Assembly (NCBI GenBank): GCA_043818055.1
Contig: JBDRGF010000060.1
Location: 516-64,515 of the forward strand
Length of the DNA stretch: 64,000 nucleotides
DNA from: Pseudomonadota bacterium
Lineage (GTDB): Bacteria > UBA10199 > 2-02-FULL-44-16 > JBDRGF01
Direction: 5' to 3'
Shown: positions 11,382 to 52,134 of the stretch, piece by piece
Numbering within the stretch: the first letter of the stretch is position 1
How the letters are laid out: every line of letters begins with the position of its first letter
Notes under the pieces: generated by a model
Told to the model about the DNA's origin: nothing
Database searches by the model: none
Seen by the model: only the letters and a program-made list of their open reading frames with translations
Position numbers and translations under genes: made by a program

Positions 11382-11387
11382 AAAATG

Positions 11388-11670: not shown

Positions 11671-11692
11671 CTGTTTTTAACGAGGTTTAATC

Positions 11693-11827: not shown

Positions 11828-11835
11828 AGGGGGCT

Positions 11836-12413: not shown

Positions 12414-12464
12414 TTTAGCAACATTCACAGGAAAGTTGCGATAATAGATGAAAAGAGGAGAGTT

Positions 12465-35342: not shown

Positions 35343-35417
35343 TATATGGATTTCCAAAGCTCAGGCAAAAACAATTATAACTACTGATATAAAATGTAAC
35401 AATAAGCGGAGGATGCT

Positions 35418-36554
35418 GTGACTGGCCATAATGCCTATACCCCAAACAAAATAGCAAATGATCATCTTCGATCATATACAACTTCTAACTTAAATATTTT
35501 TGAAAGACCGCCGTCTTATTCTTCTTGTAGTTCCCCCATTCGTTATGAAATCCGTAAAGGTCTTTTAGCTGGAAAGTATGTAGGTAGAGTAGTTGTTTTT
35601 CTTAGAGGCGCAGGATGTGAATGGATGAAAACTGGTGGTGGTTGCACCATGTGTGGCTTTCATTTGGCGACGAATGCAGGAGTGAAAATAAATGATGAAG
35701 CTCAATTTGAACAGGTAGAAAAGGCTCTGAATGAGACTCGTAAATATCATTTTCCCATATTATGCCTTTATAACGATGGTAGTTTTTTAAATGCTAATGA
35801 AATATCCAGAGGGGTTGTTGCCAAAATTTTAAACTTAATAAATAAATCTACCTGGATAAAAAAACTAGTCGTTGAAAGCAGGCCGGAATATATCACCGAT
35901 GAATCATTATTATTCGTCAAAAATCATCTTTCTATTGATTTTAAAATTGCAGTAGGACTTGAGACCACCTCTGACCAGATCAGATATAATTGTCTTAATA
36001 AAGGCTTTTCATTGGAGGATTTTAAGAGAGCATTTATGACGATCCTCTCTTATGGCTATCAAATCAAGCCACTTCTGCTAGTTAAACCACCCTTCTTAAC
36101 TGAAAGGGAGGCCATTGATGATTGTGTCAATTCAATTGGCCAACTAAAAGACATGGGAGTGCCCGCTGTTGATTTGGAGATTATGACTATTCAGGAGGGG
36201 ACACTCGTTTATAAATTATGGCAAAAAGGTTTGTATGCAACACCTTCATTGTGGTCTGTTTTAGAAATTATTTCAAAAAGCCCAAGTGATTATCCAGTAT
36301 ACATTAGTCCTATACAATATTCAGTTGATCAGTTTTTCCAAATGGCAAACTGTAGAGTTTGTTTTGAAGCAATATCAAATAAGATAATCAATTCATATAA
36401 TGTAAATCTGAATAGACAAGAGCTCTTAGTCTTGGTCAATAGGTTCGATTGTTTTTGTAGGCATAACTGGCAAGAAAAACTGAAGGAACATGATGATAGA
36501 CCATTAAAACTTCGAAGCACAGAGATGATTAAGATTCTGAAAGGAAAACGCTGA
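35418..36554 (+). CDS. radical-SAM-like enzyme with non-canonical Cx8Cx2C spacing
   Basis: GAGCEWMKTGGGCTMCG cluster, plus C-terminal CxxC and CFC; GTG start with a GGAGG RBS. Confidence 0.45.
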   Translation: MTGHNAYTPNKIANDHLRSYTTSNLNIFERPPSYSSCSSPIRYEIRKGLLAGKYVGRVVVFLRGAGCEWMKTGGGCTMCGFHLATNAGVKINDEAQFEQVEKALNETRKYHFPILCLYNDGSFLNANEISRGVVAKILNLINKSTWIKKLVVESRPEYITDESLLFVKNHLSIDFKIAVGLETTSDQIRYNCLNKGFSLEDFKRAFMTILSYGYQIKPLLLVKPPFLTEREAIDDCVNSIGQLKDMGVPAVDLEIMTIQEGTLVYKLWQKGLYATPSLWSVLEIISKSPSDYPVYISPIQYSVDQFFQMANCRVCFEAISNKIINSYNVNLNRQELLVLVNRFDCFCRHNWQEKLKEHDDRPLKLRSTEMIKILKGKR

Positions 36555-37729
36555 TGAATTTGAAAAAGAAATCCTGGGTAGAAATTAGCAGAAATAAATT
36601 GCTTAGCAATATTGCAACTATAAGATCCTGTGTTGGAAATAATCAAAAAATAGGTGCAATGTTAAAAGGTAATGCTTATGGGCATGGTATTTTAGAAACT
36701 CTCGAATGCATTGCTCATGAAGTGGACTTGTTTTGCGTAATTGCGCCTGAAGATGCAATCAACATACACAGGTATCTGTTGAACAATAATATAAAAGGTA
36801 AAAGAATATTGGTTGTTGGCCCGGTAAACGAAACAGAGATTATATCTCTTTGCGATGCAGGGGTAGAAATAGCTATTGCAGATTTGGGATGGGAATCATT
36901 TATTTCAAAGCTTAAAAAATATTCGCTAAAAAATAAGATAAAAGTACATATATACATCGATACAGGACTTGGAAGAGAAGGGATTGCTAACAATGACCTT
37001 TCAAGCCTTTTGTTTCTAGAAAGAGCTAAAGATCTAATAGATATTGTTGGAGTAATGACCCACTTTTCAAATGCAGACATTATTGGCCCTCCTGAATATG
37101 CAAAATTACAACTTGAAAACTTTTATAAAGGTATTGATGTTCTTCGTTCATTAATCTCTGGGAGTGAGAAGTGGCAATTTCATACCTCTGCTAGTTCCCC
37201 TTCACTTCTGTTTCAGGATGCAATTGGTGATTTCATACGTCCAGGAATTGGTCTATATGGGCATTGGACTTCACCGGAAACGGAGTGGAGTTGTAAAATA
37301 AAACACCAAAGATCTGTAATGTTAATGCCGGCGCTCAGTTGGAGATGTGAAACCCAGATCATAAAAAGATTAAACGCTGGATGTGCTACTGGTTACGATC
37401 TTGCCTATATATGCCAAAAACCAATGACAATAGGGGTTTTGCCAATTGGTTACTATGACGGTTATCCATATCAGGCTAGTGGGAAATCATACGTTTTGAT
37501 TAAAGGAAAACGATGTCCAATTCTTGGCAATATCATGATGAATAATATTGTTGTTGATTTGACAGATATTGAAGTATCTTCTTCTATCGAGGAACAAGCG
37601 GTTGCTACATTGATTGGAAATGACGGTGATGAAACTATTACAGCAGAAATGGTTGCTAAGTGGTCAAACAGCATCAACTATCAAGTATTGACAGGAATAG
37701 GAGATCACTTAAAAAGAATAATAGTATGA
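36554..37729 (+). CDS. alanine racemase family PLP enzyme
   Basis: PLP-lysine motif AMLKGNAYGHG; fold-type III N-terminal barrel plus C-terminal domain. Confidence 0.75.
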   Translation: MNLKKKSWVEISRNKLLSNIATIRSCVGNNQKIGAMLKGNAYGHGILETLECIAHEVDLFCVIAPEDAINIHRYLLNNNIKGKRILVVGPVNETEIISLCDAGVEIAIADLGWESFISKLKKYSLKNKIKVHIYIDTGLGREGIANNDLSSLLFLERAKDLIDIVGVMTHFSNADIIGPPEYAKLQLENFYKGIDVLRSLISGSEKWQFHTSASSPSLLFQDAIGDFIRPGIGLYGHWTSPETEWSCKIKHQRSVMLMPALSWRCETQIIKRLNAGCATGYDLAYICQKPMTIGVLPIGYYDGYPYQASGKSYVLIKGKRCPILGNIMMNNIVVDLTDIEVSSSIEEQAVATLIGNDGDETITAEMVAKWSNSINYQVLTGIGDHLKRIIV

Positions 37730-37759
37730 AAAATAGTAAGTAAGGGTAAAGGTAAAGCA

Positions 37760-38869
37760 ATGAATAATGAAATTTTAGCACAAGCAAATGAAGTTTCTAA
37801 GTCCTATCGACAGGTCAATAGAGGGAAATCATTTTTTGATTCTTTAAAGAACATATGGAATCCCTCATATACAGAAAAAGAGGCTCTTAAAACACTTTCT
37901 TTTTCTATCAAGAGAGGAGAAATAGTTGGACTTCTTGGTCCCAATGGTGCGGGCAAATCAACCTTCGTAAAGATACTTTGTGGTTTAATTGTGCCTACCA
38001 ATGGAAATGTTGCTGTCATGGGACATGATCCCAGCGATAAAGATTTTAATTTAAAACATCATCTTGGAGTGATTTTTGGGCAAAAATCATCACTATGGTG
38101 GGATCTTTCGATTAAGGAAAATATTAAAATATTTGCAGCCATTTATAATAAACAGTCAGTTATTGATCAAGAGTGGATAGAGCAGTTGATAACCAGGCTG
38201 GATCTCAAACATGTGATTGATACTCCTATTAGAAATTTAAGCCTTGGTGAGCGAGTAAAAAGTGAACTGGTTTCTGTCTTGCTCTATAAACCTACGCTCT
38301 TGGTTTTAGATGAACCTACAATAGGACTGGATGTAACTTCAAAGAAAGAAATAAGAACACTATTGAAGGAATTGGCGAGTGAGCAGGGAATGTCCATTTT
38401 ACTGACTTCACATGACATGGTAGATATTGAAAGCTGTTGCCAAAGGGTTGTGATAATAGATAAGGGAGAAAAAATATTTGAAGGTTCTATTTCAAATTTG
38501 AGAAAGCAGATTGACCCACTAAAAACAATTATTGTCAGATTGCCAATACAATCTAAAGAGAACGAATTAAATTTAGAAAGTATAATTAAAAATAAATTAG
38601 AATATCTTAGTAATAAATATCCTCTGAAAATATCTATTTCTAATTCATTAGTCGAAACTCTAGGTTGCATATACCCAAACAATGGTGTGTCGGAAGATTC
38701 CATTATTCAAATTGACTTAGAGGAAAAATATTCCAGCAGTGTTCTTGGGGTATTGCTAGGGATAGAAAATGATCTGGATATTGAGATCAGACCGCGGTCA
38801 TTAGAATCGTTAATCGTTAAATTTTTCAAAGATAACAAGGAAGCGAGTGAATCAAGAACGGGACCCTAA
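37760..38869 (+). CDS. ABC transporter ATP-binding protein with an approximately 120-aa C-terminal extension
   Basis: GLLGPNGAGKST, LSLGERVK, LVLDEPTIGLD. Confidence 0.85.
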   Translation: MNNEILAQANEVSKSYRQVNRGKSFFDSLKNIWNPSYTEKEALKTLSFSIKRGEIVGLLGPNGAGKSTFVKILCGLIVPTNGNVAVMGHDPSDKDFNLKHHLGVIFGQKSSLWWDLSIKENIKIFAAIYNKQSVIDQEWIEQLITRLDLKHVIDTPIRNLSLGERVKSELVSVLLYKPTLLVLDEPTIGLDVTSKKEIRTLLKELASEQGMSILLTSHDMVDIESCCQRVVIIDKGEKIFEGSISNLRKQIDPLKTIIVRLPIQSKENELNLESIIKNKLEYLSNKYPLKISISNSLVETLGCIYPNNGVSEDSIIQIDLEEKYSSSVLGVLLGIENDLDIEIRPRSLESLIVKFFKDNKEASESRTGP

Positions 38870-38878
38870 AGGACAGTA

Positions 38879-39706
38879 TTGACCATGAAGATAAATGATA
38901 AATCATTTTTCAATATGCCAATGGCATTGATTAAAACAGGACTGAAATTAGTTTTGTGTGATAGAGGAATGTTTATAACTGATTTTTTTCTTGCAACTAC
39001 ATTGCCTTTTCTTGTCCAGTATCTTGTCTGGTCATATGTCTATAATTCCAGGGGAATAGAGTCTATTTCGGGTTACTCATACGTCACAACAATAACATAT
39101 TATGCATTGGCAATCTTGATAGGCCGATTCAATAATGGCTATGTGGTGATTACTAAGAATGCCAATGAAATTCATGAAGGGCAATTGGAGCTGAGAATGG
39201 CAAGGCCTTTTACATTGTATCAAAAGAATTTCTTTGAATTTCTCGGAGAAAGCCTTCTTTATATCATTCCTGTGGTTATTTCGATTATTGTGTGTGCAGT
39301 TGTCTGCTTCAAATCAATCTATCTTAATCCTCTTTTTTGGATACTACTGATTCTACAATTGGTTTTATCTCAATTTCTTATTTTTAACCTCTCATGGATA
39401 TTAGCAGGAAGCACCATTTGGTTGGTGAGAGGTTTTTTTATGGCTAATTTGCTAGCGGCTTTTCAATCATTTTTTGGTGGAGAACTACTCCCAGTAGCAT
39501 TTTGGCCTTCATGGTTGATTCCTATTCTAAAATATAATCCCTTTTATTTTATTAACGGTGCAATTATAGATTCCTTCCTCCACGGAAACGAGATCGTATT
39601 AATCACTAACTGTTTCTATACTCTTGCTTATGCCTGTGTCCTATTTTTCATCGGAAAAGTTGTGTGGAGCTGTGGTTTGAAAAAATATTCTGGAGCAGGG
39701 GGGTAA
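38879..39706 (+). CDS. ABC-2 type transporter permease
   Basis: 6-TM hydrophobic profile, adjacent to the ATPase. Confidence 0.6.
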   Translation: MTMKINDKSFFNMPMALIKTGLKLVLCDRGMFITDFFLATTLPFLVQYLVWSYVYNSRGIESISGYSYVTTITYYALAILIGRFNNGYVVITKNANEIHEGQLELRMARPFTLYQKNFFEFLGESLLYIIPVVISIIVCAVVCFKSIYLNPLFWILLILQLVLSQFLIFNLSWILAGSTIWLVRGFFMANLLAAFQSFFGGELLPVAFWPSWLIPILKYNPFYFINGAIIDSFLHGNEIVLITNCFYTLAYACVLFFIGKVVWSCGLKKYSGAGG

Positions 39707-39708
39707 TT

Positions 39709-40512
39709 ATGATAAGCAAAGTAAAAAGAAAGATGCAGGGTAATATAATATCGAAATTAATGAAAGCAGCTTTGGGAGAGCAAATAGCTTATCGGTTAGA
39801 TTTAAGTTTAGACTTATTATTAGTGCTATTAATAAATGGGCTCAGGATTGCGGTTGTTGAGGCCATTATGATACATACTTCGTTGCTGGCCACTTGGAGT
39901 AAAAAAGAAATAGAAATTCTATACTTGATTGCCTTAGTGATGTCACTTTTTGTGGATTCTTTTTTAAAAAGTGTTCAACATTTTATTCATGAATATCATC
40001 GAGGAATAATAACACCTCAACTCTTAAGACCATATTCCATGACAAAATTGATTTTGCTTAGATGGATGAAACCCGCGCACGCTCTGACAGCGTTGATTTT
40101 GATGATTCCAGTATTTTACTATGGGATAGGAGGTGTAACAAATATTTCAATAGATTGGATGAGTTTATTTTGGGGAATATTTTCGTTTGTTTTAGGAGTT
40201 ATTACCATTGTTCTTTTCTCTGTTTCCCTTCATTTGATCAGTGTTTTTGCAGTAAGAGAGCTACCAATGGATTACATATTCTTTCACCTATATAGATTTT
40301 CTTATTGGCCAATTGATATCTTCCCTAAAGCGTTCCAGTTTTTTTCTATTGTAATGCCAGTGCTTGTTTGTAGTAGTGTTGCATCTGCATTTTTATCAAA
40401 AGGAAGCTCCCCCTACTTATATCTACTGGTGCTTTCTTCAATTTTTTCGTTCGTAGTCTTTAAAATAATGACAATAAAGATTAGGGGGAGATTGTCACTT
40501 ATCGGAGGATAA
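39709..40512 (+). CDS. ABC-2 type transporter permease (second)
   Basis: Hydrophobic multi-TM protein; start moved to ATG 39709, which has an RBS. Confidence 0.55.
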   Translation: MISKVKRKMQGNIISKLMKAALGEQIAYRLDLSLDLLLVLLINGLRIAVVEAIMIHTSLLATWSKKEIEILYLIALVMSLFVDSFLKSVQHFIHEYHRGIITPQLLRPYSMTKLILLRWMKPAHALTALILMIPVFYYGIGGVTNISIDWMSLFWGIFSFVLGVITIVLFSVSLHLISVFAVRELPMDYIFFHLYRFSYWPIDIFPKAFQFFSIVMPVLVCSSVASAFLSKGSSPYLYLLVLSSIFSFVVFKIMTIKIRGRLSLIGG

Positions 40513-40571
40513 GTGAAGCAGTATAGCCTTTAGAATTTAAAAACAAGAATTTGAATAAAAAGAGGTGAATT

Positions 40572-42005
40572 ATGGTCTATGATATAAAATTTCATAATTT
40601 TGAGGATCCAATCATAGCAAAATATAGTGTTTTTCCCACAAGCAGGACTCCCGAAACTCTGGAGCAACAAATTGATATTCTATCAAAGTGGAATAATGAA
40701 AAAGAGAAAATGCATAATCGAACTAAGTGGAGCGTGGAAGATTTAAATAAATTGAAAATTCAGCAGCTAAGCGTTTTAGTAGATCACGCTTTTAATAATG
40801 TTGTTTTCTATCATGAGCTCTATAAAAAATTTGGTTTTCAAGCAGGGGAAATTAGATCCTGGAAAGGCTTTGGTTCCCTTCCAGTTATTAACAAAATAGA
40901 TTTGGCAAACAACTTTCCTGATAGAATTGTGGCTAAAGGATATGTTCATAATAAGTTGCATGGGGCTAGGACATCTGGTTCAAATGGAATGCCTGTAACA
41001 ATTGTGTCTGATTGGAACAGGGTGGCTCAAGATACTATTGATCGAATGAGAATGTTTGAAATTATGATGTCATCTTCAATTGATGAGAACGACTGGAGGT
41101 ATTGTATAGATTATTCTCCATGGTGGATATCATCCTTTGTTGGAAAGTATAGATCATATACTGTTCACTTAAATTGTCCAATTGATAAGATTGTAGAGCA
41201 TATTCGAAAACTCAAACCTACTGTTGTTTGCGGTGTAGGTAACATGATTATTGAAATAGCATCTCGGTTGCCAGACGCTAAACAATTAGGAATAAAATGT
41301 TTTTCTTCTAATAGCGAGACTACATCTATTGATCAGAGGAGAAAGATTTCATCTGATATTGGTGTTCCAATACTTGATGAGTATTCCTCAGAAGAGCTTG
41401 GCTTGATTGCAACTGAGTGCAATTATGGTGCATACCATGTGGTGGAAGATTCCTGTCATGTTGAGCTGTTGTCATTAGAAGATAATAGCGAAACCAAAAC
41501 CGATGATTTAGGCAGAATAATTGGGACTGGCATGTGGAATATGGCAATGCCGATTATTCGCTATGATCAGGGAGATTTGGCAGAGTGGAGTACGTCAGGA
41601 GAGAAGTGCGCATGTAATCAAACATTTAGAAGGTTTAAATGTTTTCACGGTCGATCAGATCAGGCTCTTTTTAGTCCAGTATATGGTTTAGTTCCTCCTA
41701 TTAAAATTTTAGCAATCATGGATAACACTTTAGCTTGCACAGATTCTGGATTTTTATGTTTTCGTTTGATACAGAAAGCATTTGATACGCTAGAGCTATA
41801 TGTTGTTGTTGAAAACGATAAGAGAGAACTCAATATGAAGTTGTTTGAAAAGTTCAAAACAGACATTAACGCTCTCTTTAAATATAATATGACTATTAAA
41901 AACTTGTTTGTTGATGAGTTGCCACCTGGGAATAGCTATAAAAGAAAAACTATCGTTAATGAAATTCCGAAAAATAGTTTGAAAGAAAGGTGTTTAACCA
42001 AATGA
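40572..42005 (+). CDS. PaaK/CapK/F390-synthetase-like adenylate-forming ligase
   Basis: ANL motifs TSGSNGMP (P-loop) and YDQGD (A8-like); about 450 aa, typical of the phenylacetate-CoA ligase family. Confidence 0.6.
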   Translation: MVYDIKFHNFEDPIIAKYSVFPTSRTPETLEQQIDILSKWNNEKEKMHNRTKWSVEDLNKLKIQQLSVLVDHAFNNVVFYHELYKKFGFQAGEIRSWKGFGSLPVINKIDLANNFPDRIVAKGYVHNKLHGARTSGSNGMPVTIVSDWNRVAQDTIDRMRMFEIMMSSSIDENDWRYCIDYSPWWISSFVGKYRSYTVHLNCPIDKIVEHIRKLKPTVVCGVGNMIIEIASRLPDAKQLGIKCFSSNSETTSIDQRRKISSDIGVPILDEYSSEELGLIATECNYGAYHVVEDSCHVELLSLEDNSETKTDDLGRIIGTGMWNMAMPIIRYDQGDLAEWSTSGEKCACNQTFRRFKCFHGRSDQALFSPVYGLVPPIKILAIMDNTLACTDSGFLCFRLIQKAFDTLELYVVVENDKRELNMKLFEKFKTDINALFKYNMTIKNLFVDELPPGNSYKRKTIVNEIPKNSLKERCLTK

Positions 42006-42901
42006 AAATAGCAATTATTCATGACGAGATACATCCTCTAATAAATCAGGTTGTATCTGGGCTTGCAGAGAAAAACATAGAGGTTCATTTATTGTTATGG
42101 AATGACTTTAAATATCAATGCTCTGATGGTGTAATTGAAATATTTAATAAAGATCAGAACCTCTGTGGTTTTGATAAAATCTTTCTTGAGAGAGCTGGAG
42201 AGGAATCGCCTAGTTATTATACTCAACTCAGACTGCTTAAAATCGCCCAAAGCATGGGATGTAAGATTTTTAATGATCCATATGCGTATGAGCGTGCGCG
42301 AGATAAGGCTTCTGCGACTTTAATTTTATCTAAAAATTTACTTCCAGTACCACCAACGATTTTGGTTCACAATATAGAAGAGATTCAAGATTTTATATCA
42401 CTACATAAAGATGTAATTTGTAAACCTATACTGGGCCATAGTGGAATAGGTATCCTACCATTTTCTGAAAAGAATATTCCTTTTGATAAATTACAGGAGT
42501 TGCTTGTTAAAGATGGAGTGATGTTGCTGCAAAAATATATCAAAGGTCATTATCAGAGAGATGTTAGAGTAGATGTGGTGAATGGAAAAATTGCTCAATG
42601 TTATTATCGTTACGCTAATGACATCTCTCAGTTTCATGGTGACTATGTGGTTTGTAATGTGGCAAGAGGTGGACGGCCAGCTTTTATTGACGCTCCAAGT
42701 GATGCTAGAAAATTGGCGCTTGCAGCGGCAAAGTGTTTAGATTTGGTTGTTGCAGGAGTGGATTTTATAGAAAACGAAAACGGAGAGCTTTTTATATCTG
42801 AGGTTAACCCAGAACCTAACATGCCAGGAACTGAAGGTGTGGCATTTCCAAAAGCAATATCCAATTTTCTTTCTATTCCTTTTATAGAGGAAGAGAACTA
42901 A
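42002..42901 (+). CDS. RimK-like ATP-grasp ligase
   Basis: ICKPILGHSGIGI; GVDFIENENGELFISEVNPEP. Confidence 0.65.
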   Translation: MKIAIIHDEIHPLINQVVSGLAEKNIEVHLLLWNDFKYQCSDGVIEIFNKDQNLCGFDKIFLERAGEESPSYYTQLRLLKIAQSMGCKIFNDPYAYERARDKASATLILSKNLLPVPPTILVHNIEEIQDFISLHKDVICKPILGHSGIGILPFSEKNIPFDKLQELLVKDGVMLLQKYIKGHYQRDVRVDVVNGKIAQCYYRYANDISQFHGDYVVCNVARGGRPAFIDAPSDARKLALAAAKCLDLVVAGVDFIENENGELFISEVNPEPNMPGTEGVAFPKAISNFLSIPFIEEEN

Positions 42902-42902
42902 A

Positions 42903-44234
42903 ATGTTCAAAGAAGCTAATTCCTCCATTGAATGGGATCAAAGTATCAATGAAGAAGATGTCAAATGGTTGATAAGTTTACAGAAGAAATATTCATTTCT
43001 ACCATGCTGTCGCAATCTTGAAAATATGTTGCTTAGGCCTGTTATTTTGGATCAAGTAGCTTATCAGCAAATGCAAAATGTTGCTGCCAATGCGATAAGG
43101 ATAACGGTAGAGGTTTTTAAAAAAACTTATACCGATGCTAAAGCCCTTGCTAAGGAAAATGGAATTGATAGCAGGTTGATGGATTTTTTTACGGATAGTT
43201 TAAATTCAAATCTCTGGACATTGATGATGGCCAGGCCAGATATTATCATTGATAAAAATGGTAATATTAAAGTTATTGAACTCAACATTGAACCTTCTAT
43301 TGGAGGACTTGTTGATTGTACCGTTTTACCAGATGAATATATTAATGGACCCTCTGGCAATAAAGTAATAAAAAAAACTCAGCTACGCTTTGATCGGCCA
43401 CTCGTAGAAATGGCGGCAATGCTGCGAAATTTGTGGGGCAGCTTAGGCAATAATTCTACTCCTAATGTTGCTTTGATCGAATATCAATACGACGTATTGG
43501 TAAATCAGTTACAAGCAGAAATACTTTCAGGCATGGGTGTTTCCACATCATATGTAAGGCCATGGGAATTAAATATTAAAGCTGGGGAACATGGTCTTTA
43601 TTATGGAAATAAATTGATTGATATTGCCATAAGAAATTTTCCACTCGATGTCCCTTCAAGTGATGAAGAAATATTATCCCTAAATACTTTGTTGAAAAGT
43701 TACCAGGATAAACATGCTTTCCATTTACCAGGAGATGCAACTAGCATCATCGCTAATAAAAAATCATTTGCTTTAGTATGGGAACATATTGAGTTTCTTT
43801 CTATGTCCGATCAGCTCTTTGTTAAAAACCATATACCTTATACGAAACTTCTAACAAAAAAGACTTTGGAAAGGCATGAGGCATTTGGCAATAAAGATTT
43901 ATGGGTATTGAAAAAAAGTATCGGGCATGGCGGAAAAGATGTTCTTATTGGAAAGGATGCGGCGTCTGATAAACTATGGAATCAGATTCTCAATGAGAGA
44001 GCCTCCTCCAGGGAATATGTTATGCAAAATTTTATAGAACCATCACAAGTTGTTTTACCATTTGTGAAACAAGGTTGTTTATATAAGCAAAAAGTGGACA
44101 TAATCTTTGGTCAATATGTTTTTGGAGATCGAGCGGGAGGGACTCTTGTACGATTCAAAAACTCAGACGCAGGGGGTGCTATCAATGTCTCTCGAGGGAC
44201 TGGAGCATGTTTTTGTCTAATAAAAGCGTCATAA
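42903..44234 (+). CDS. second ATP-grasp-type ligase (GspS/circularly-permuted-like)
   Basis: DIIIDKNGNIKVIELNIEP and KKSIGHGGKDVLIG segments. Confidence 0.4.
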   Translation: MFKEANSSIEWDQSINEEDVKWLISLQKKYSFLPCCRNLENMLLRPVILDQVAYQQMQNVAANAIRITVEVFKKTYTDAKALAKENGIDSRLMDFFTDSLNSNLWTLMMARPDIIIDKNGNIKVIELNIEPSIGGLVDCTVLPDEYINGPSGNKVIKKTQLRFDRPLVEMAAMLRNLWGSLGNNSTPNVALIEYQYDVLVNQLQAEILSGMGVSTSYVRPWELNIKAGEHGLYYGNKLIDIAIRNFPLDVPSSDEEILSLNTLLKSYQDKHAFHLPGDATSIIANKKSFALVWEHIEFLSMSDQLFVKNHIPYTKLLTKKTLERHEAFGNKDLWVLKKSIGHGGKDVLIGKDAASDKLWNQILNERASSREYVMQNFIEPSQVVLPFVKQGCLYKQKVDIIFGQYVFGDRAGGTLVRFKNSDAGGAINVSRGTGACFCLIKAS

Positions 44235-44247
44235 TAACTCTGTTGTT

Positions 44248-45162
44248 TCAGCTCAAAAACTTCAACGCGCTTTGTGCAGCGATTAACCCTTGTGCAGTTG
44301 AAATTGCCGGGTTTTGTGGTAGGCCGCAGATAACATCGCCAGCTGCATAACAGCCCGGGTGCGATGTTGAGAGGGTTTCATCGACTAGCACGGTTCCTTT
44401 ATCGGAGAGCCTTATCTCGCCTTTTGCAAATTCTGTCGATGGCTGAAATTCGTGTAGATAATTAAATAGGCCAGAGGCATCAAGCTGCCTCTCCTTTCCG
44501 GTTTCGATTATCGTTATGGATTCGATGTTGCCGCTTCCATCAATCTTTCTGACGCTGCTGGAAAAAAACGTTTCGATCTTCTTTTCATTTTGAATTTGAT
44601 CAATGTGTTTGTTGCTCGCGTCCAGACGATTCGACGGAATCACAAAAAATATTTTCTCGGCATGTTTTGAGAGATCGAGGACGGCATCCACAGAGGTCTG
44701 ATTTTTTCCCACTACCACTATTTTTCTGTCATGAAAGAGGTGACCATCTTTTTTTACGTCGTATGAAACGCCAGAACCTAAAAACTGCTGCTCTCCGGGG
44801 AGATAGTTCGTCCTCTCGGATGCGCCGCTGGCTATGATGATGGTGCGCGCTTGCAGCTTTTCACCATCCGATAGAAAGATAGAAATAGATTCAGGCTCAT
44901 TTTTTTGTTTTGTTACCTGAGCGGTTTTGACGTGAGCGCCGTTTAAAGTAGCCTGTTTTCTAAGTCTTTCTATGAGCACCTTTCCGGATATGCTCTCGAC
45001 TAATCCTGGAAAATATCTGACATGAGGCAAAGACCCCATGAATCCGAAGTGGACACCCTTGTCCACCAACAGACATTTTTTTCTAAAGTTGGCCAGGTAT
45101 GTAGCCGCTGCGCACCCTGCCGGCCCGCCCCCGATGATTATCACGTCATAAAATGTATGCAT
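44248..45162 (-). CDS. FAD-dependent pyridine nucleotide-disulfide oxidoreductase (TrxB-like)
   Basis: VIIIGGGPAGCAAA Rossmann motif; second NAD(P) motif VVVGKN; C-terminal GD motif. Confidence 0.7.
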   Translation of the reverse strand: MHTFYDVIIIGGGPAGCAAATYLANFRKKCLLVDKGVHFGFMGSLPHVRYFPGLVESISGKVLIERLRKQATLNGAHVKTAQVTKQKNEPESISIFLSDGEKLQARTIIIASGASERTNYLPGEQQFLGSGVSYDVKKDGHLFHDRKIVVVGKNQTSVDAVLDLSKHAEKIFFVIPSNRLDASNKHIDQIQNEKKIETFFSSSVRKIDGSGNIESITIIETGKERQLDASGLFNYLHEFQPSTEFAKGEIRLSDKGTVLVDETLSTSHPGCYAAGDVICGLPQNPAISTAQGLIAAQSALKFLS

Positions 45163-45178
45163 AGGAACTCCTAATTTT

Positions 45179-45208
45179 GTAGGGGCGGTTCGCGAACCGC
45201 CCTAAAAC
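45179..45208. repeat. REP-like palindrome, imperfect copy (GTAGGGGCGGTTCGCGAACCGCCCTAAAAC)
   Basis: Near-identical to the element at 6344-6371. Confidence 0.65.
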
Positions 45209-45795
45209 AATGTGCCTTGAGCCTCATCCACTTCTCTCTCGCTGGGATGAGCTATTTCCCACGCGACCTCGCAGTGTCTGTTCGAGCCGTTATACTTGTC
45301 TGTGTAGAGTAACTCCTTATGTTTTGCTCCGTATTCAAATACCTCTTTCGTGATGCGGACGTCGTCCAGACAATATTTTTTCAGCTTATCCATCTCTCCA
45401 CTTCTATAATACTTGATAGCATCCAACCCGCTTCCGCTCTTGCCAATGTGTAAAGTCGCTTTAGCGACACTATCGAGGCTGACACGATGCCCAAGCCTTT
45501 TTTGCATCTCTTCCATTATATCAACCTGAGGCAGTTGTGATAGACTCATAGTGCAGTATCTCTGAAGAATAGGCGTATCAAATTTTTTACTGTTAAAACC
45601 GACCAAAACCGGCTTAAATTTTAAACGGTCTTCAAAGGCTGAGAGCTGATTTTCTTCATAGATGACGTACTCTCCCGTTTTATAATCAAAAGACCCGAGC
45701 ACTGAGATCCCAAGCTCTCGCAAATTATCCCTTCCCCCAACCTCATCGAAGAGATACTTTGTTTCTATGTCATAGACTATGATATTCTTGCCCAT
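45202..45795 (-). CDS. DEDD-family 3'-5' exonuclease
   Basis: YDIET...FNSKKFDTPIL...CLDDV motifs; start moved to MGKNIIVYDIET. Confidence 0.55.
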   Translation of the reverse strand: MGKNIIVYDIETKYLFDEVGGRDNLRELGISVLGSFDYKTGEYVIYEENQLSAFEDRLKFKPVLVGFNSKKFDTPILQRYCTMSLSQLPQVDIMEEMQKRLGHRVSLDSVAKATLHIGKSGSGLDAIKYYRSGEMDKLKKYCLDDVRITKEVFEYGAKHKELLYTDKYNGSNRHCEVAWEIAHPSEREVDEAQGTLF

Positions 45796-45858
45796 ACAGC
45801 TCGAATAACATAGGGTTATTATGGTGCAAGAAAAAAGATTTGAAACTGAGGGGGTAAA

Positions 45859-46296
45859 ATGAAGGTGCTTATTCAGAGGGTCGCTAAAGCCTCTGTCGAG
45901 GTCGAAGGTGAGGTGGTGGGCAAGATAGGCACGGGGCTGGTCCTCTTTTTTTGTGCGGAGGTGGGTGATGAAGAGACGCAAATTGAAAAGCTAGCGAACA
46001 AAGTGGCAAATTTGAGAATTTTCCCCGATAATGATGGAAAGATGAATCTCTCTGTCAGCGATATCAAAGGGGAGGTTTTGTCCATTTCCCAATTCACGCT
46101 GGCGGCCGATGTTGAGAAGGGAAATCGACCCTCATTCACAAAGGCCATGCCTCCCGAGGAGGCGGCGCGGTTTTATACACTTTTTTCAGAGGCGCTTGAA
46201 ATGCGGGGGCTGAAAGTAGCCAAGGGGATATTCGCCGCTCACATGTTGGTCAATATCTCAAATGATGGACCGGTCACGATAATGATTGGAGTGTAG
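45859..46296 (+). CDS. dtd: D-aminoacyl-tRNA deacylase
   Basis: MKVLIQRV...SQFTLAAD...NDGPVT; 145 aa. Confidence 0.9.
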   Translation: MKVLIQRVAKASVEVEGEVVGKIGTGLVLFFCAEVGDEETQIEKLANKVANLRIFPDNDGKMNLSVSDIKGEVLSISQFTLAADVEKGNRPSFTKAMPPEEAARFYTLFSEALEMRGLKVAKGIFAAHMLVNISNDGPVTIMIGV

Positions 46297-46343
46297 TGTA
46301 CAGTTTACAGTTCGCAGTACAAAGTGTATAGTGATGCGGTTTT

Positions 46344-46401
46344 GTAGGGGCAGACCCATGTGTCTGCCCTCGAGAGGGCGAACACGCGGGTTCGCCCCTA
46401 C
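46344..46401. repeat. REP-family element with two internal hairpins bounded by GTAGGGG...CCCCTAC
   Basis: Hairpins GGGCAGAC/GTCTGCCC and GGGCGAAC/GTTCGCCC. Confidence 0.6.
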
Positions 46402-46421
46402 ATCATTAGAATGGGGGATTT

Positions 46422-47264
46422 ATGAAGCGGACATTCTTATTCATCTCAATTCTTTTTTTAATCGGCACATCTGCCTTTGCCGCCAAATCTACGATGGATG
46501 ATGCTGATGCCAAACTAAAGAGCGGTGATTTGAAGGGGGCGGCTGTTGCTTATATTGATTATTATAACAATAACAAGAGGGACAAGTCCTCTGCGCGCGC
46601 GCTGGCGATGACGGGAAGGATCATGGACAAGTTGCGGGAGGTTGTCAGCGAAGAGGCAGAGAAGAAATGCTACTGGGGAAAGAACACCCCCAAGACACCT
46701 CAGTGCATGGAAAAAGAGGTTAAGGAATACAATAAGATATTCGGCAAGGATGCTCTAGAATATATAGGGGGGACGAGCATCGCTTACATTGATTATACAG
46801 GATCTCATTACAAGGAGCTGCTTAAAAAGTTCAAGAACAACAAGTATAGCGAGGAGGCAGAATTTTATCTCATGCTTCAAAACCTAAAAGGCCATCCGGA
46901 CGAGGTGCTCCCTAAGGTGAAAAGTTTTCTTGGCGAGCGCAAATCTGGCGAGTGGAAGAAGAGATCTCTTCTACTGTGGGCAAGAGTGAATCAGGATGTA
47001 TGGAACGTCTGGAAGGAATGGAGCTGGGTTGTATTCAATAAGAAAATTTCAGATGATGAGATGATCGTCAGGGCCGAACCGTATCGTCAGGAGGCCTTGA
47101 AAACTTTTTCCCAGATCAAGGGTAATAGTGGATTTATTGGAAAGGCTGCGAAGAGTGAATATAAGATGCTTAATGATCAGGTTGATGACGGCATCCATTA
47201 CAGCATTACAAACGATTCAACGCCCGGCACCTGGGCCAACTGGGGACTCAGCCTTACGGATTAG
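46422..47264 (+). CDS. secreted hypothetical protein
   Basis: Signal peptide MKRTFLFISILFLIGTSAFA. Confidence 0.45.
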   Translation: MKRTFLFISILFLIGTSAFAAKSTMDDADAKLKSGDLKGAAVAYIDYYNNNKRDKSSARALAMTGRIMDKLREVVSEEAEKKCYWGKNTPKTPQCMEKEVKEYNKIFGKDALEYIGGTSIAYIDYTGSHYKELLKKFKNNKYSEEAEFYLMLQNLKGHPDEVLPKVKSFLGERKSGEWKKRSLLLWARVNQDVWNVWKEWSWVVFNKKISDDEMIVRAEPYRQEALKTFSQIKGNSGFIGKAAKSEYKMLNDQVDDGIHYSITNDSTPGTWANWGLSLTD

Positions 47265-47270
47265 ACCTAT

Positions 47271-49232
47271 ATGCTTGAATCATTATATCAACACATATCT
47301 ATTCAGGGCGTTCTATGGCTGATGTTGCTTATCCCGCTCGTGGTTTTTTTTGTCTCCTCCCTTTGCTTTTTTTTGAATGGGTTCATTTCCAAACGCATTC
47401 CACTGGCATTCACAAATACCGCTCTTTTTATCGGCAGCGCGCTTTCGTTGTTCATCAGCTCGACGGTCTTTTTTACGCTCAGAGGATTTAAGGAGGTAGG
47501 ATCCACTCTCATAACAGGGCCTTTGTTTCGGTGGGCGGTTTCAAAGGGATTCATTGTCGAGATTGGACTTATAGTTGATGAACTGAATCTTGTGGCGCTG
47601 CTTCTCGTATCGTTTCTCTTCTTCATGGCGCATCTCTATTATTTCTCATATCCCAAAGAAGAATCTCTGGGGGCTAGAATCTTCCTGCCCCTTTCGCAAT
47701 TTTTTCTGACGATGACTATTCTCTCCGACAATCTCGTCTTGGTATTTGTCGGATGGGTTGGTCTGGCGTTTACTTCGTTCCTGGCCATTATGAATATTGG
47801 TGATGAGTTGGGCAACAAAAGGGCTTTTTGTTTTGTCAGCATAAGCATGCTCGCGGATATGATCCTTTTGATTTTTATCTTCCTCATCTTTGCAACTATG
47901 TCTGCACCTCAGATGACGGAGCTCAAGGAACTCTTCGTCTTTAAATCGATCGAAAATATGGTGCCATATCTTCTGCCGATGTCGCTGCCTCTTGGGCTTT
48001 TGATGGTCGCAGCTATTATCCTCAAGACAATTCCATATCCATTTACTCTCTGGTTTAGCTCCGGCAATAAATTACCATCCCATCTGTGGGCGCACATGCT
48101 CATCGGGCAGGGTATCTTTGCTGCAATTTATTTTGGTTTAAGGATGAATTTTCTCGTAGCGCTCAACCCCTTTGTTCTTGGGATCTTAAGCAGCGTCGGA
48201 CTTTTTCTGGCGATTTTGATGGCGATATTATCATTGGCCGAGAGGGATGCCTTTGTCTCACTCTGGTATCTCTTATTGGCGGAGGTGGGAGTTATTCTGG
48301 CCAGTTTAGGAAAAGGGATGTTTGTCGGAGCAGCGACTCACTTAGTTGCCTTTGGAACATTCGCGCTTCTTATTCTCTTTTGTGTTTCATCCGCTGTCAA
48401 AGCCGCTGGTGGTAGAAGGGATTTAAAGCAGCTGGGAGGATTAGGCAGGAGAATGCCTATCAGCCGATGGGGGGCTTTGATTGGAGGTTTATCGCTTGCC
48501 GGAATCGCCCCGACAATTGGAGCGGTGACGAAAGAGGGGGTTCTCTGGAGCGCCTACTCTTCACAAGGGCTTTGGTTGTGGATCCTCTATCTTGTCGCAG
48601 CTGCATTGAGCGCCTTTGCTATCTTTCGAATAGTTGGATATATATTTTTAGGGGATAGCACCCTCACAGAGGAGGAATGGTTTAAGGTTGCGGAGGTTGG
48701 ACCCGCTTCGATGATGAGCCAGATGATTCTCATGGCTGGAATCCTCTTCTGTTCATGGCTTGCATTTCCCTCCTTTTTTGGAGGGAGTGACTGGATTGCG
48801 AATTGGTTTTCCGGTATTTTGGTGGACAGAGCTTCCGCGGTATCGACCGGATCGGTCAGATATCTTCTTATGATAATATTCGAGGTGGTTATTTTACACG
48901 CCGTAGTTTTGAGTTCAGTCATCTATTCGCAGAGAAGGGACTGGGTGGATGGAATCGGCGATCGACTCTCTTACATTTCAAAAGCAACGAAGCAGGGTTT
49001 TTATTTGCCGAAGTTGTTCATGAATTGGCTGCCTTGGTTTTTTGTTACCATTAAAAATTTCATAGGCGCCAGCATTATAGACAGTTTCACAACAGAGCTC
49101 ATCTCGGGATTCGGCGCGCTCTGTGATTCGACTGCTTGTGTAGTCGCTTATGTGAACAAGAGAAACAGATATTTTTTACTCGCGTCGCTATTTTTTGCGC
49201 TGAGCTTTTTGTGTCTTTTAATGTTTGTGTGA
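47271..49232 (+). CDS. degenerate NuoL/MrpA-like antiporter-type membrane subunit
   Basis: 16 or more TM segments. The segment WFSSGNKLPSHLWAHMLIGQGIFAAIYFGLR aligns to the NuoL [31 protein letters not shown] core, with the key residues replaced. Confidence 0.5.
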   Translation: MLESLYQHISIQGVLWLMLLIPLVVFFVSSLCFFLNGFISKRIPLAFTNTALFIGSALSLFISSTVFFTLRGFKEVGSTLITGPLFRWAVSKGFIVEIGLIVDELNLVALLLVSFLFFMAHLYYFSYPKEESLGARIFLPLSQFFLTMTILSDNLVLVFVGWVGLAFTSFLAIMNIGDELGNKRAFCFVSISMLADMILLIFIFLIFATMSAPQMTELKELFVFKSIENMVPYLLPMSLPLGLLMVAAIILKTIPYPFTLWFSSGNKLPSHLWAHMLIGQGIFAAIYFGLRMNFLVALNPFVLGILSSVGLFLAILMAILSLAERDAFVSLWYLLLAEVGVILASLGKGMFVGAATHLVAFGTFALLILFCVSSAVKAAGGRRDLKQLGGLGRRMPISRWGALIGGLSLAGIAPTIGAVTKEGVLWSAYSSQGLWLWILYLVAAALSAFAIFRIVGYIFLGDSTLTEEEWFKVAEVGPASMMSQMILMAGILFCSWLAFPSFFGGSDWIANWFSGILVDRASAVSTGSVRYLLMIIFEVVILHAVVLSSVIYSQRRDWVDGIGDRLSYISKATKQGFYLPKLFMNWLPWFFVTIKNFIGASIIDSFTTELISGFGALCDSTACVVAYVNKRNRYFLLASLFFALSFLCLLMFV

Positions 49233-50718
49233 TCATGCAATTTGTTCGAGAGTATTCTTTGGAGGTTTTTTGTTAAGCTTAGTTATCATATTTCCTTTTG
49301 TCGCAGCAATAGCCTTAGGGTTGTATCCCAAAAAGCATCTCTTTCTCTTTCTCTCTATTCTTGGAATGATGCTTTTAGGTTTTGTGGGATTCAAGTGGTG
49401 GATGTCGGCTGGGGAGCTTATCGAAGTTCGTCATTGGGTGGGGGAGTTTGGCATCGGCTACAGATTGAACTTAGGAGGTCTGAGTTTACTGATCATATCA
49501 CTATTGTATCTCTTTTTATTTTACCTTGGGATCTTTAACGAAAAAGTTGATGAAAGTCATAATCTCGCATCATCGTTTTTGATACTCGGAACTATAGCCG
49601 GAGTGGTCATGTCCACCGACCTCATACTCTTCTATCTCTTTTTTGCCTCGCTCTGGTGGTGGCTGATATTGCTGAATCGCTCTAAATTCGGTTATTCATT
49701 CTATCTTCCCTTCATGCTCTTTGATATGTTGCTCCTGGTGACGATATTGTATGGAGGTGTGAAGATCGGTTCGTTTTCATTGGCAAAGTGGTACGGTTTT
49801 TCATTTCCCATCATCGAGGAGAGCCTCCTCTTCTGGGGATTTTTAGGCTCATGTCTTGCCAGATTGTTCGTGTTTCCATTTCACACAGGTTTCCTGAATT
49901 ACACGAAGAATGCCCGGTCTTCGCTTGTGATTTTCCTCGTAATGTCGGGTTTTTCAGTATCGGGATTGTTTGCGATCTATCGTTTTATCATCCCGATATT
50001 TAAGAACGCATCCCTCATCTATAGCAACTACGTAATTTTGTGGGCAGTCATTTCAATAGTTTATGGACTCATAGTGATCGGGAAAAGATCCACATACCAA
50101 AAAATGATAGCCCTTATCATCATGTTTGAATCGGAGCTCGCGCTGATCGGACTCTTTTCCTTTCAGGAAGAGGCTGTGATGGGGAGTCTCATGCTGATGC
50201 CGGCTATCATCTTTGGCGCAGGACTGCTTCTCTCTTTTAGCGGGAGGGTTGTTCAAAGAGAGGGATTTATAGTTGAAGGAAGAGTGAATCGTTGGTTCTT
50301 ATTGTTAGCACTCATATTTGTGATAGGGCTTCCCCCTTCAGCGGGATTTGTTTGGGGATTCTACCTCTTTCTTGGGAGCTTTCAGATAATGCCTAAATTG
50401 GGAGCGTTCATGTTGCTCGCCCTCTGGCTGTGGTTGATGATTTCCATCTACTATTTTACAATAGGTGGTGTTGAGCCCCAAAGTGCAAATGTCCGAAAGA
50501 ACAGATATTCACTGATCATTCCATTGATGCTGCTAGTCCTCTTCGGAGTTTATCCAAGGGCATGGATTTCATTTGTGGAGAGGGAGACAAGATCATATTT
50601 CAATGAGAACAATCTTTTCAGACAACAGAAGAAAGATTTAAAGAGTATAAACTCTGCTGCGACAATTCCTAGTCAGCGCATACTTGATAATAAATTGATA
50701 GTTCGGGGGAGGAGATGA
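49225..50718 (+). CDS. degenerate NuoM/MrpD-like membrane subunit
   Basis: FVFPFHTGFLNYTKNARSSLVIFLVMSGF aligns to the NuoM motif [28 protein letters not shown]. Confidence 0.5.
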   Translation: MCDHAICSRVFFGGFLLSLVIIFPFVAAIALGLYPKKHLFLFLSILGMMLLGFVGFKWWMSAGELIEVRHWVGEFGIGYRLNLGGLSLLIISLLYLFLFYLGIFNEKVDESHNLASSFLILGTIAGVVMSTDLILFYLFFASLWWWLILLNRSKFGYSFYLPFMLFDMLLLVTILYGGVKIGSFSLAKWYGFSFPIIEESLLFWGFLGSCLARLFVFPFHTGFLNYTKNARSSLVIFLVMSGFSVSGLFAIYRFIIPIFKNASLIYSNYVILWAVISIVYGLIVIGKRSTYQKMIALIIMFESELALIGLFSFQEEAVMGSLMLMPAIIFGAGLLLSFSGRVVQREGFIVEGRVNRWFLLLALIFVIGLPPSAGFVWGFYLFLGSFQIMPKLGAFMLLALWLWLMISIYYFTIGGVEPQSANVRKNRYSLIIPLMLLVLFGVYPRAWISFVERETRSYFNENNLFRQQKKDLKSINSAATIPSQRILDNKLIVRGRR

Positions 50719-51974
50719 GTCAACCTTTGATGATTCTTTTTGCAGGCGTGATTCTTTTTATCATCTTTGAGATTTTTTCCATCTCGAGAGAGAAATCTTT
50801 TGCATCGATCCTATCCGGCTCATTTCTGACACTCTTTGTGGTATTGTCGTGGAACAACTGGCTCAGCGAGAGCATGAACAGGGTGACGATCTTTTTGGGA
50901 ATATTGATTGGATTAGTTCTGCTTTCGATCTCTGTCATGAAATCTGACTGGAAGTGGAGGGATCTCGCCCTTCTGTTTATCTCAGGGATCGGTCTTATCC
51001 TCTCATCTTCGGCGAATAGTTTTTTTGGTTTTATCGCCGCGATCTGGTCTGCGGGTTTTGGCATAGCCATGCTTTTTGACTCCGATGAACAGACCCGGAC
51101 AGAGGCTCTGAATTTTATGTATGCGATCTCTCTTGGAGTATTGCTCCTGGTGGGTGGAGGATTATTATTTCTCAAAGGATCGGATTCCGCAGGAATCAAT
51201 TTTAATAAGATAGGCTTGATTTTCGCATCGGCCGGAGCCCTCGTGTTAATGGGGATCTATCCATTTGGTGTGTGGCTGAACAGGATTACCGAAGAGACTC
51301 CTAATTATATTCTTCTCCTGATCTATGGCGGTTGGAGGATCGCCCTTTTTGGCGGGATAATTCGCTTTTTATCCCCCCTGCTGGGCTTGAAGGGAAATTT
51401 TGCGATAGTATTGGGTCTTCTTGCCCTCATAACCACTTTCATAGGATCGGCATCCATCTGGAATGAACGGAAAGAACGAAGGATCATAATACATTTTAAC
51501 TATGCGCTGGGCGGAGTTTTCTTGCTTCCGATCGTCGCCCTCCCCGGGGGCGGTACCGACGTGGAGCAGATGATGCTTCTGCTTATGACGTCCCTTCTCT
51601 TTTCGATCATAGGTTTATTCAGTCTCGCATCCAGCAATATGGTCGGCATGTGGAGGAGGGCGATTGCAATCCTCCTGATGTTTTCCGGCGCTGGAATCGG
51701 CCCATTCTTCACCTTCTTTGCGAAGCTCAATCTCTTCTCTACACTATCCGCAGGTGGAAATATATATCCGCTCGTGTGTTCCTTTCTGGTCAGTTTGATG
51801 CTCATCATGAGCGTTGTGAGATTCGCCCTAAAGGTCGATGGCATTGAGCATGCGGTGGAAGATGGAACCATTGGAGCCAAGGCCGTATCATATTTTTCAT
51901 TCGCCGCGAGCCTCGTATTTGGGATACTGCCATCCGGAATGCTGGCCATCTCATGGTATTCAGCGAATAGTTGA
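50715..51974 (+). CDS. degenerate NuoN-like membrane subunit
   Basis: YPFGVWLNRITEETPNYILLLIYGGWRIALFGGIIRF is analogous to the conserved TM7-8 block. Confidence 0.45.
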   Translation: MSQPLMILFAGVILFIIFEIFSISREKSFASILSGSFLTLFVVLSWNNWLSESMNRVTIFLGILIGLVLLSISVMKSDWKWRDLALLFISGIGLILSSSANSFFGFIAAIWSAGFGIAMLFDSDEQTRTEALNFMYAISLGVLLLVGGGLLFLKGSDSAGINFNKIGLIFASAGALVLMGIYPFGVWLNRITEETPNYILLLIYGGWRIALFGGIIRFLSPLLGLKGNFAIVLGLLALITTFIGSASIWNERKERRIIIHFNYALGGVFLLPIVALPGGGTDVEQMMLLLMTSLLFSIIGLFSLASSNMVGMWRRAIAILLMFSGAGIGPFFTFFAKLNLFSTLSAGGNIYPLVCSFLVSLMLIMSVVRFALKVDGIEHAVEDGTIGAKAVSYFSFAASLVFGILPSGMLAISWYSANS

Positions 51975-52001: not shown

Positions 52002-52043
52002 GTAGGGGCGGCCCCCTGTGGCCGCCCGCGGGTTATACCCTAC
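52002..52043. repeat. REP-family element
   Basis: GTAGGGGCGGCCCCCTGTGGCCGCC...ACCCTAC. Confidence 0.55.
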
Positions 52044-52134
52044 ATTCATATTATAACCGCAAGCGGTAGGCATTCATATAAACTGTTGAATCATTTCATT
52101 TTTTCGATACAATGAAGCAAATCAAGGGGGGATT

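Follow-up and report, generated by a model that had tools for sequence, protein, structure and literature searches.

A divergent nuoLMN trio and the gene of a secreted helical-repeat protein as the putative in-place remnant of a complex I operon

This report deals with a small group of genes for membrane proteins and an exported protein in a Pseudomonadota bacterium, read from a metagenome-assembled genome (assembly GCA_043818055.1, contig JBDRGF010000060.1, positions 516 to 64,515). This whole stretch of 64,000 nucleotides (nt) is hereafter called the window. An initial annotation had placed three consecutive open reading frames (ORFs) resembling the complex I subunits NuoL, NuoM, and NuoN at 47271-51974, flanked by genes for secreted proteins. 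They are indeed found at exactly those coordinates, full-length but very divergent, and the gene on either side codes for a protein with a signal peptide. We refer to the three proteins as L, M, and N, and to the secreted protein encoded directly upstream as X. The locus comprises the following features:

44248-45981, minus strand: synteny anchors outside the system, namely a pyridine-nucleotide disulfide oxidoreductase gene (PyrRedox, 44248-45162) and an RNase_H_2-type exonuclease gene (45202-45792/45981).
46304-46332, plus strand: sigma-70-like promoter candidate upstream of X (TTTACA-17-TATAGT), a consensus match only, with 10/12 consensus positions.
46343-46402, plus strand: GC-rich perfect hairpin between the promoter-like site and the X start, a palindrome resembling repetitive extragenic palindromic (REP) elements (GTAGGGGC...GCCCCTAC; -44.5 kcal/mol, z -5.1).
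46422-47264, plus strand: X, a 280-amino acid (aa) secreted TPR-like helical-repeat protein with two invariant cysteines, a lineage-specific nuo-operon protein.
47271-49232, plus strand: L, a 653-aa divergent NuoL homolog (PF00361, TIGR01974; best PDB matches NuoL/Nqo12).
49270-50718, plus strand: M, a 482-aa divergent NuoM homolog (TIGR01972; PDB matches NuoM/Nqo13).
50715-51974, plus strand: N, a 419-aa very divergent NuoN homolog (NF004442, hhalign, Foldseek).
52002-52045, plus strand: second REP-like palindrome (GTAGGGGCGGCCCC...CCCTAC), 28 nt past the N stop, marking the 3' end of the operon.

The genes are tightly packed. L starts 7 nt past the X stop, and the frame of M is open from a TTG at 49225 (497 aa), with a likelier start at the TTG at 49270, which has GGAGG ahead of it and is also the start in the NCBI annotation. 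The ATG of N overlaps the M stop (ATGA) and is likewise preceded by GGAGG. The coding frames hold no stop in ~1,570 codons, as against 53-102 stops in each of the other five frames, so the ORFs are not due to chance. Owing to the Shine-Dalgarno sequences and the overlapping or adjacent stop and start codons, we regard the genes as a working operon, in which L, M, and N are predicted to be one translationally coupled unit; the same signals indicate a four-gene operon X-L-M-N (46422-51974) with X first. The corresponding public records (MFH1653433-MFH1653436, locus tags ABIE74_05195-05210) describe X, M, and N as "hypothetical" and L as a "proton-conducting transporter".

The two palindromes that bracket X-L-M-N belong to an intergenic REP-like family with members at 6344-6371, 45179-45186, 46343-46402, and 52002-52045 (six copies of the family 8-mer observed, 0.6 expected). 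The upstream hairpin lies within the presumed 5' leader of X.

L is the most readily recognized member of the trio. It matches PF00361 (E 1.9e-18, 67 bits, cut-off 21.5) and, over nearly its whole length, the NuoL model TIGR01974 (5e-48, residues 16-646 on model positions 4-624 of 630). As far as the sequence alignment goes, this match runs through the C-terminal extension, which in canonical NuoL comprises the lateral helix and the final transmembrane (TM) anchor. Among solved structures its best relatives are NuoL/Nqo12 chains, and a scan of genome contigs with L alone returned no relative. M has no Pfam match; it aligns in full length with the NuoM model TIGR01972 (2e-29), and its PDB matches are NuoM/Nqo13 chains. 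The scores lie far below the equivalog cut-offs of NCBI (164 vs 407 bits for L and 103 vs 264 bits for M), a gap that can be taken as a measure of apparent degeneration.

N is more divergent still, with no Pfam match, no PDB sequence match in phmmer even at E 10, a weak match to the NuoN model NF004442 (2e-8), and only three relatives (E<=0.001) in a HMMER scan of 1.84 billion representative proteins. Its kinship is borne out by a profile-profile comparison: a profile of N and one close relative matches canonical NuoN in hhalign with 98.1% probability (E 1e-13, 406 columns). The AlphaFold model of N, built from a four-sequence alignment, is of low confidence (predicted local distance difference test, pLDDT, 49; predicted template modeling score, pTM, 0.51), and in Foldseek the top 20 PDB matches of this low-confidence model are all NuoN/NdhB/ND2 chains (E 2.5e-6 to 6e-5, template modeling (TM) scores 0.47-0.57). 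Judged by these comparisons, the trio consists of orthologue-type counterparts of NuoL (L), NuoM (M), and NuoN (N), encoded in the canonical order.

The residues of the proton path were read from alignments anchored on Thermus thermophilus Nqo12 and Nqo13 and on Escherichia coli NuoN, with a numbering that reproduces the literature positions:

L (Nqo12 numbering): E132V, H241L, H325F, K329A, and D386E replaced; D166, K216, H321, and K385 kept.
M (Nqo13 numbering): E123A, K204R, K235S, H292E, and E377G replaced; H211 kept.
N (E. coli numbering): E133W, K158N, K217L, H224G, and K247R replaced; K395 kept.

The TM5 glutamate is thus gone from all three subunits (valine in L, alanine in M, tryptophan in N), the TM8 and TM11 lysines and histidines are replaced, and the TM12 glutamate of M has become a glycine. 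Among the TM5 Glu, TM7 Lys, TM8 Lys/His, and TM12 Lys/Glu, only L-K216, L-K385, and N-K395 remain. The hallmarks of the broken helices survive, namely P-F-x-x-W in TM7 and G-x-P-P...G-F in TM12. These replacements agree with what the initial annotation had read from the letters, including its example of HTWLPDAH turned into HTGFLNYT, which is seen when M is aligned with Paracoccus NuoM. On this evidence the continuous Lys/Glu/His axis is interrupted in L, M, and N alike, and the alignments show the canonical proton path to be broken as far as residue identities can tell.

The search for partner subunits covered the whole 64-kb window. Hidden Markov models (HMMs) for NuoA, B, CD, E, F, G, H, J, and K, each built from 7-29 relatives, gave no match (E<=1) among six-frame ORFs of at least 40 aa; NuoI, which lay outside this set, was found neither by a search for its CxxCxxCxxxCP motif nor by Pfam scans. 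The latter, run on ~45 window ORFs, detected no respiratory, Mrp, or hydrogenase component. What defines a functional complex I is accordingly missing from the window: the Q-module and quinone-site subunits (NuoB, C, D, H, I), NuoA/J/K, and NuoE/F/G. The first description of the trio as standing without partner subunits thus holds for canonical partners in the window, and fails in so far as the upstream secreted protein X belongs to the unit. Cryptic nuoA-K remnants in intergenic DNA were considered and rejected, as the spacers ahead of X (125 nt) and from X to L (7 nt) leave no room for them and no HMM match was obtained. The downstream secreted protein, of the DUF4440 type, was likewise considered as a partner; its gene is not conserved in the syntenic relative introduced below, and it is probably unrelated.

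X begins with a Sec-type signal peptide (MKRTFLFISILFLIGTSAFA|AK, the cleavage site being our own reading) and belongs to no Pfam family. Its homologs fall into ~60 clusters at 36-53% identity, all from uncultured organisms labeled as Deltaproteobacteria, Pseudomonadota, Myxococcales, Bdellovibrio, or simply "bacterium", and they share the invariant C83 and C95 as well as several strongly conserved motifs. The AlphaFold2 model (pLDDT 88.8) is a helical repeat, nearly all α-helical with one short β-hairpin, and no solved structure is related to X by sequence. Foldseek returns weak matches to the TPR proteins BamD, YbgF, and MamA (best E 6e-3, TM scores 0.24-0.37), the match to the BamD model TIGR03302 reaches 16 bits, where the cut-off is 81, and 7 of 38 family members weakly match TPR_6/TPR_14, with YfiO also among the profiles that a few members hit. 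The predicted architecture is therefore best described as a helical repeat with weak TPR/BamD matches that fall short of membership. X adjoins nuo genes in every locus long enough to show its neighbors. Literature searches turned up no mention of X, of any gene placed between nuoB and nuoC, or of clusters consisting of nuoLMN alone.

About half of the X homologs carry a proline-rich C-terminal tail ending in P-[KQS]-R-W-[QNG]. This tail is absent from the X of the window and from some other members, from full and reduced operons alike.

The origin of the four genes becomes apparent from 47 loci around X homologs, which were annotated with reference Nuo proteins and HMMs. About 35 of them hold a complete operon, A-B-X-C/D-E-F-G-H-J-K-L-M(-N), with X placed after nuoB and ahead of nuoC/D. 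In one such locus (L005, RIFCSPLOWO2_02_FULL_44_10), the X start overlaps the nuoB stop, and the PyrRedox/RNase_H_2 pair stands upstream of a complete nuoA-B-X-CD-E-F-G-H-J-K-L-M operon. The same pair is found directly upstream of X-L-M-N both in the window and in a distant relative (locus L004), which has PyrRedox, RNase_H_2, X, L, M, and N arranged as in the window and holds the only real relative of N. The synteny with L005 shows that the window locus is the ancestral nuo locus and not a stray duplicate. The reduced operons are composed as follows:

L007 (1.03-Mb contig): a small ORF without HMM match, then X-H-J-K-L-M-N.
L037: X-H-J-K-L-M-N.
L020: X-D'-H-J-K-L-M-N (D' being NuoD-like and degenerate).
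L033: X-J-K-L-M-N.
L013: X-H'-K-L-M-N (H' being a NuoH gene in degenerate form).
L027: X-L-M.
L004 and the window: X-L-M-N.

X, L, M, and (where the contig reaches it) N have thus been kept through every independent reduction found. As in the window, NuoA, H, J, and K are missing from L004 by HMM search, while L007 and L037 do have H-J-K-L-M-N. In full-type NuoL, the key proton-path residues examined are kept in every case; in each reduced operon, several are lost in L, M, or N.

Several peculiarities of these related loci deserve mention on their own. In two reduced operons a conserved ORF of 130-170 aa directly precedes X (L007 9619-10017; L035 52-561); it sits at the nuoA/nuoB position, matches neither HMM, and was hence rejected as a NuoA. 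The NuoN-like protein of L004 (10001-11008) has 335 aa and is devoid of the N-terminal helices of the window N, resembling the truncation of metazoan ND2. In the complete nuo operons of six X-containing loci (L005 16286-18060, L008, L017, L023, L026, and L031), nuoI is absent between nuoH and nuoJ, no ORF of these loci contains the CxxCxxCxxxCP ferredoxin motif, and NuoH is unusually long (415-437 aa); either NuoI must be encoded elsewhere or the enzymes of these relatives must be unusual. Finally, a locus among the closest database relatives of L (L003 5944-15171, ENA contig k141_445999) carries nuoA-B-C-D-H-J-K-L-M-N, without E/F/G and without X. Its NuoL is split into ORFs of 402 and 220 aa, and both M (K204R, K235P, and E377W among its changes) and N have substitutions at a number of key residues, so that it looks like another partly degenerate variant of complex I.

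A bootstrapped neighbor-joining tree of X (100 replicates, a single 276-column protein alignment) never places all reduced operons in one clade (0/100). Instead, L027 branches within a full-operon clade (100/100), L033 and L036 join the full L014/L017 (86/100), and the window and L004 are sisters (100/100) grouped with the full L005/L031/L010 (88/100). These placements indicate that the redox arm was lost independently at least three or four times. Such recurrent reduction suggests that what remains has a role other than proton pumping. A scan of GTDB representatives found exactly one X locus in each of 20 genomes, which argues against paralogous pairs of full and reduced operons sharing X.

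The membrane subunits and X have fared differently upon reduction. Between full operons, L is 48-70% and X 33-53% identical; in pairs with at least one reduced operon, X stays steady at 32-58%, whereas L drops to 20-55% (mostly 20-46%). Between the window and L004, the amino acid identities are 56% for PyrRedox, 70% for RNase_H_2, 53% for X, 37% for L, 35% for M, and 27% for N. As their synonymous sites are saturated (proportion of synonymous differences, pS, ~0.78), we compared the nonsynonymous proportion (pN), which is 0.44-0.53 for L/M/N and 0.21-0.30 for X and the neighboring genes, with no disruptions. L/M/N thus evolve 1.5-1.8x as fast as X at nonsynonymous sites. Since the ORFs are intact and pN is below saturation while pS is ~0.78, L/M/N are apparently still under purifying selection, relaxed or altered, and the constraint on X appears unchanged. 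The ratio of nonsynonymous to synonymous rates (dN/dS) against the near-identical L001 (99.8% nt identity) and L056 (96%) had no power, with no differences in L and four in M.

The divergence of L056 (an ENA contig, 96% identical to window 45910-48522) is mosaic: the synonymous rate dS is 0.40 in dtd and 0.037 in X, while L shows no difference over its first 417 codons. The pattern points to a recombination boundary, or else to a chimeric assembly, in the vicinity of X.

Gene order, synteny, and alignments together show X-L-M-N, as far as comparative genomics can, to be what is left, at its original site, of a complete complex I operon specific to this lineage, apparently maintained as four genes across a deep divergence. 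We conclude that the ancestral operon of the lineage was nuoA-B-X-C/D-E-F-G-H-J-K-L-M-N, with X as an extra Sec-exported TPR-like protein, and that nuoA-B and nuoC-K were deleted in the common ancestor of the window organism and L004, leaving X 7 nt from nuoL. The products may still form an inner-membrane complex, the antiporter-like subunits keeping their fold (TM7 and TM12 motifs, C-terminal extension of NuoL). Because the axis is interrupted in all three subunits, L/M/N would have ceased to conduct protons by the canonical Lys/Glu/His route and could instead serve as a membrane platform or anchor for periplasmic X. The constraint on X did not change with the loss of the redox arm, so X probably carries the retained, respiration-independent function, which would probably be a protein-protein interaction of the TPR type in the cell envelope. 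Whether a non-pumping L/M/N platform has in fact been retained for a periplasmic X with such a role is, to our mind, evenly balanced. More tentatively, and with somewhat less confidence, we suggest that this amounts to a new cell-envelope complex, in which a catalytically dead antiporter module was co-opted as an inner-membrane dock for X, convergently at least three or four times in one uncultured lineage.

Several points weigh against this proposal. The association of X with L/M/N is known here from the genes, the fold of X yields only generic, TPR-like matches, and the model of N has a pLDDT of just 49. The trees are neighbor-joining trees on one alignment of 276 columns. Moreover, 64 kb of the genome were examined, and nuoA-K genes that have moved, or a further nuo operon, may lie elsewhere. 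In L the lysines of TM7 and TM12 persist, and the lysine-to-arginine changes in M (K204R, TM7) and N (K247R, TM8) are common to the window and L004, so some residual charge-dependent function is conceivable.

It is this last point that opens the way to a different explanation, in which the trio still transports ions by a noncanonical route, as a leak, uniporter, or antiporter for H+ or Na+, using D166, K216, K385, and Glu386 of L, Arg204 of M, and Arg247 and K395 of N. The retained D166 and lysines of L would fit, as would the shared arginines, which suggest selection for charge, and a proton-pumping role has been proposed for the extra, membrane-arm-only nuoAHJKLMN operons found in marine actinomycetes (PMC6676996, PMC4018334). 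We nonetheless deem it unlikely: all three TM5 glutamates have given way to hydrophobic residues, the central connecting residues of TM8/TM11 are gone in each subunit, and L-K385 and N-K395 are lost in L004, which means that conservation of the surviving lysines does not extend across the clade. L/M/N also outpace X at nonsynonymous sites, and arginine is a poor proton carrier. One may equally suppose that nuoA-K reside elsewhere and that X-L-M-N serve in a working NADH:quinone oxidoreductase, the distal subunits merely evolving fast. Split nuo operons exist in other bacteria, and only one contig of this genome, 65.4 kb long, could be read. Against such a split speak the ancestral nuo site from which A-B and C-K were cleanly removed, with the 7-nt gap between X and L; the loss of pumping-essential residues in all three subunits, when full-type relatives keep them in NuoL; the same pattern in six further reduced lineages; and the single X locus per genome in the GTDB representatives. 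All this leaves a split enzyme rather improbable.

Simple decay would account for the faster evolution of L/M/N, the lost catalytic residues, and the shortening of N (419 aa in the window, 335 aa in L004), if the genes were a functionless relic not yet deleted. It sits poorly with the stop- and frameshift-free coding frames, with the preserved Shine-Dalgarno sequences and translational coupling, with the same four genes being intact in L004 despite saturated synonymous sites and with pN below saturation, and with the retention of L, M, and (where the contig reaches it) N in every independent reduced lineage found; we hold it to be quite improbable. The initial annotation had also likened the trio to Mrp antiporters, and the likeness to NuoL/M/N is the half of that label which stands. 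PF00361 is common to Mrp, and there are weak matches to the NCBIfam MrpA/MrpD models (1e-7 to 2e-20). The Nuo models outscore these, however, each for its own protein and in the order L-M-N, and the top PDB matches are complex I chains. Unlike database matches of the MrpA type, L is without the MrpB-like domain/DUF4040 (PF13244, PF20501, PF04039), and the small subunits MrpC/E/F/G are absent from the window. Because of the best-scoring models in gene order and the synteny with complete nuo operons exemplified by L005, which settles descent, a degenerate remnant of an MrpA/MrpD-derived cation/proton antiporter was rejected as highly improbable.

The remainder of the window is of a different nature. 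By Pfam it includes the replication-origin region with dnaA, dnaN, recF, and yidC, besides transporters, regulators, tRNA synthetases, and an island of ATP-grasp and alanine-racemase genes. As the origin genes at 7512-14150 (recF, dnaN, dnaA, then yidC) are those of a chromosome, so is the contig, and a Mutator-family transposase gene lies at 24267-25565 (minus strand). The island at 35400-44250 has a low GC content (0.34-0.36 vs ~0.45 elsewhere) and encodes an alanine racemase, an ABC-2-type transporter (ATPase and two permeases), two or three ATP-grasp proteins (RimK/YheCD-like), and two proteins without family. Possibly this cluster was gained by horizontal transfer and serves to ligate or modify peptides.

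Complex I is usually kept entire or lost entire. The lineage described here, probably of the GTDB phylum UBA10199, shows its stepwise dismantling, from the full operon via loss of the redox arm and of H/J/K to L/M/N alone, repeatedly and with parallel loss of catalytic residues, thus offering a natural experiment on the structural versus catalytic parts of the antiporter-like fold and a possible case of a bioenergetic module reused as a scaffold. X, encoded between nuoB and nuoC, is a candidate for a new periplasmic accessory subunit of bacterial complex I. If our proposal is true, X would be a genuine one, with a function independent of respiration that alone suffices to keep ~1,550 membrane-protein codons under selection after the enzyme was lost. 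There is also a practical side: with L annotated as a "proton-conducting transporter" and the other three as "hypothetical", reconstructions of the metabolism of these groundwater bacteria could assign them a proton pump in error or overlook the relic altogether.

The closest known system is the NuoL-NuoM-NuoN module of complex I itself, with which the trio shares direct descent, gene order, the structural motifs of TM7 and TM12, and probably the overall fold family. It differs in standing without the Q-module, the N-module, and NuoA/H/J/K, in the replacement of the TM5 Glu and most of the TM7/TM8/TM11/TM12 Lys/His/Glu, and in its shortened N. It is, moreover, accompanied by a periplasmic TPR-like protein that has no counterpart in characterized complex I. 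Operons for the membrane arm only (nuoAHJKLMN) occur in marine Salinispora, Streptomyces, and Kocuria as extra copies beside a complete nuo operon; they are the proposed proton pump cited above, and their function is not experimentally established (PMC4018334, PMC6676996). They are likewise nuo-derived and without any peripheral-arm gene, but they retain NuoA/H/J/K, whereas the window holds the ancestral locus with only L/M/N, destroyed proton-path residues, and an added secreted subunit.

Mrp (MrpA-G) also has antiporter-like PF00361 subunits, which function there in the absence of any redox module. In contrast to the Nuo-type sequences of the window, Mrp needs MrpB/C/E/F/G and keeps the Lys/Glu axis. 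In the cyanobacterial NdhD3/NdhF3-CupA and the DabB-DabA CO2-uptake systems, a PF00361 subunit has been reused with a nonredox partner. CupA and DabA are cytoplasmic and carbonic-anhydrase-like, and their membrane subunits keep the proton-path residues; X, on the other hand, is exported, TPR-like, and unrelated in sequence. Mitochondrial complex I offers an analogy only: disulfide-containing accessory proteins decorate the outer face of its membrane arm, and metazoan ND2 is missing three N-terminal helices, much as X has two invariant cysteines and the N of L004 is without its N-terminal segment. No sequence relationship exists, and X is TPR-like instead of having a CHCH fold. Finally, BamD, CpoB (YbgF), and MamA share with X a predicted helical repeat and are its best, though weak, structural matches (Foldseek E>=6e-3, TM scores <=0.37); X is not a member of their families, and its genomic context is exclusively nuo.

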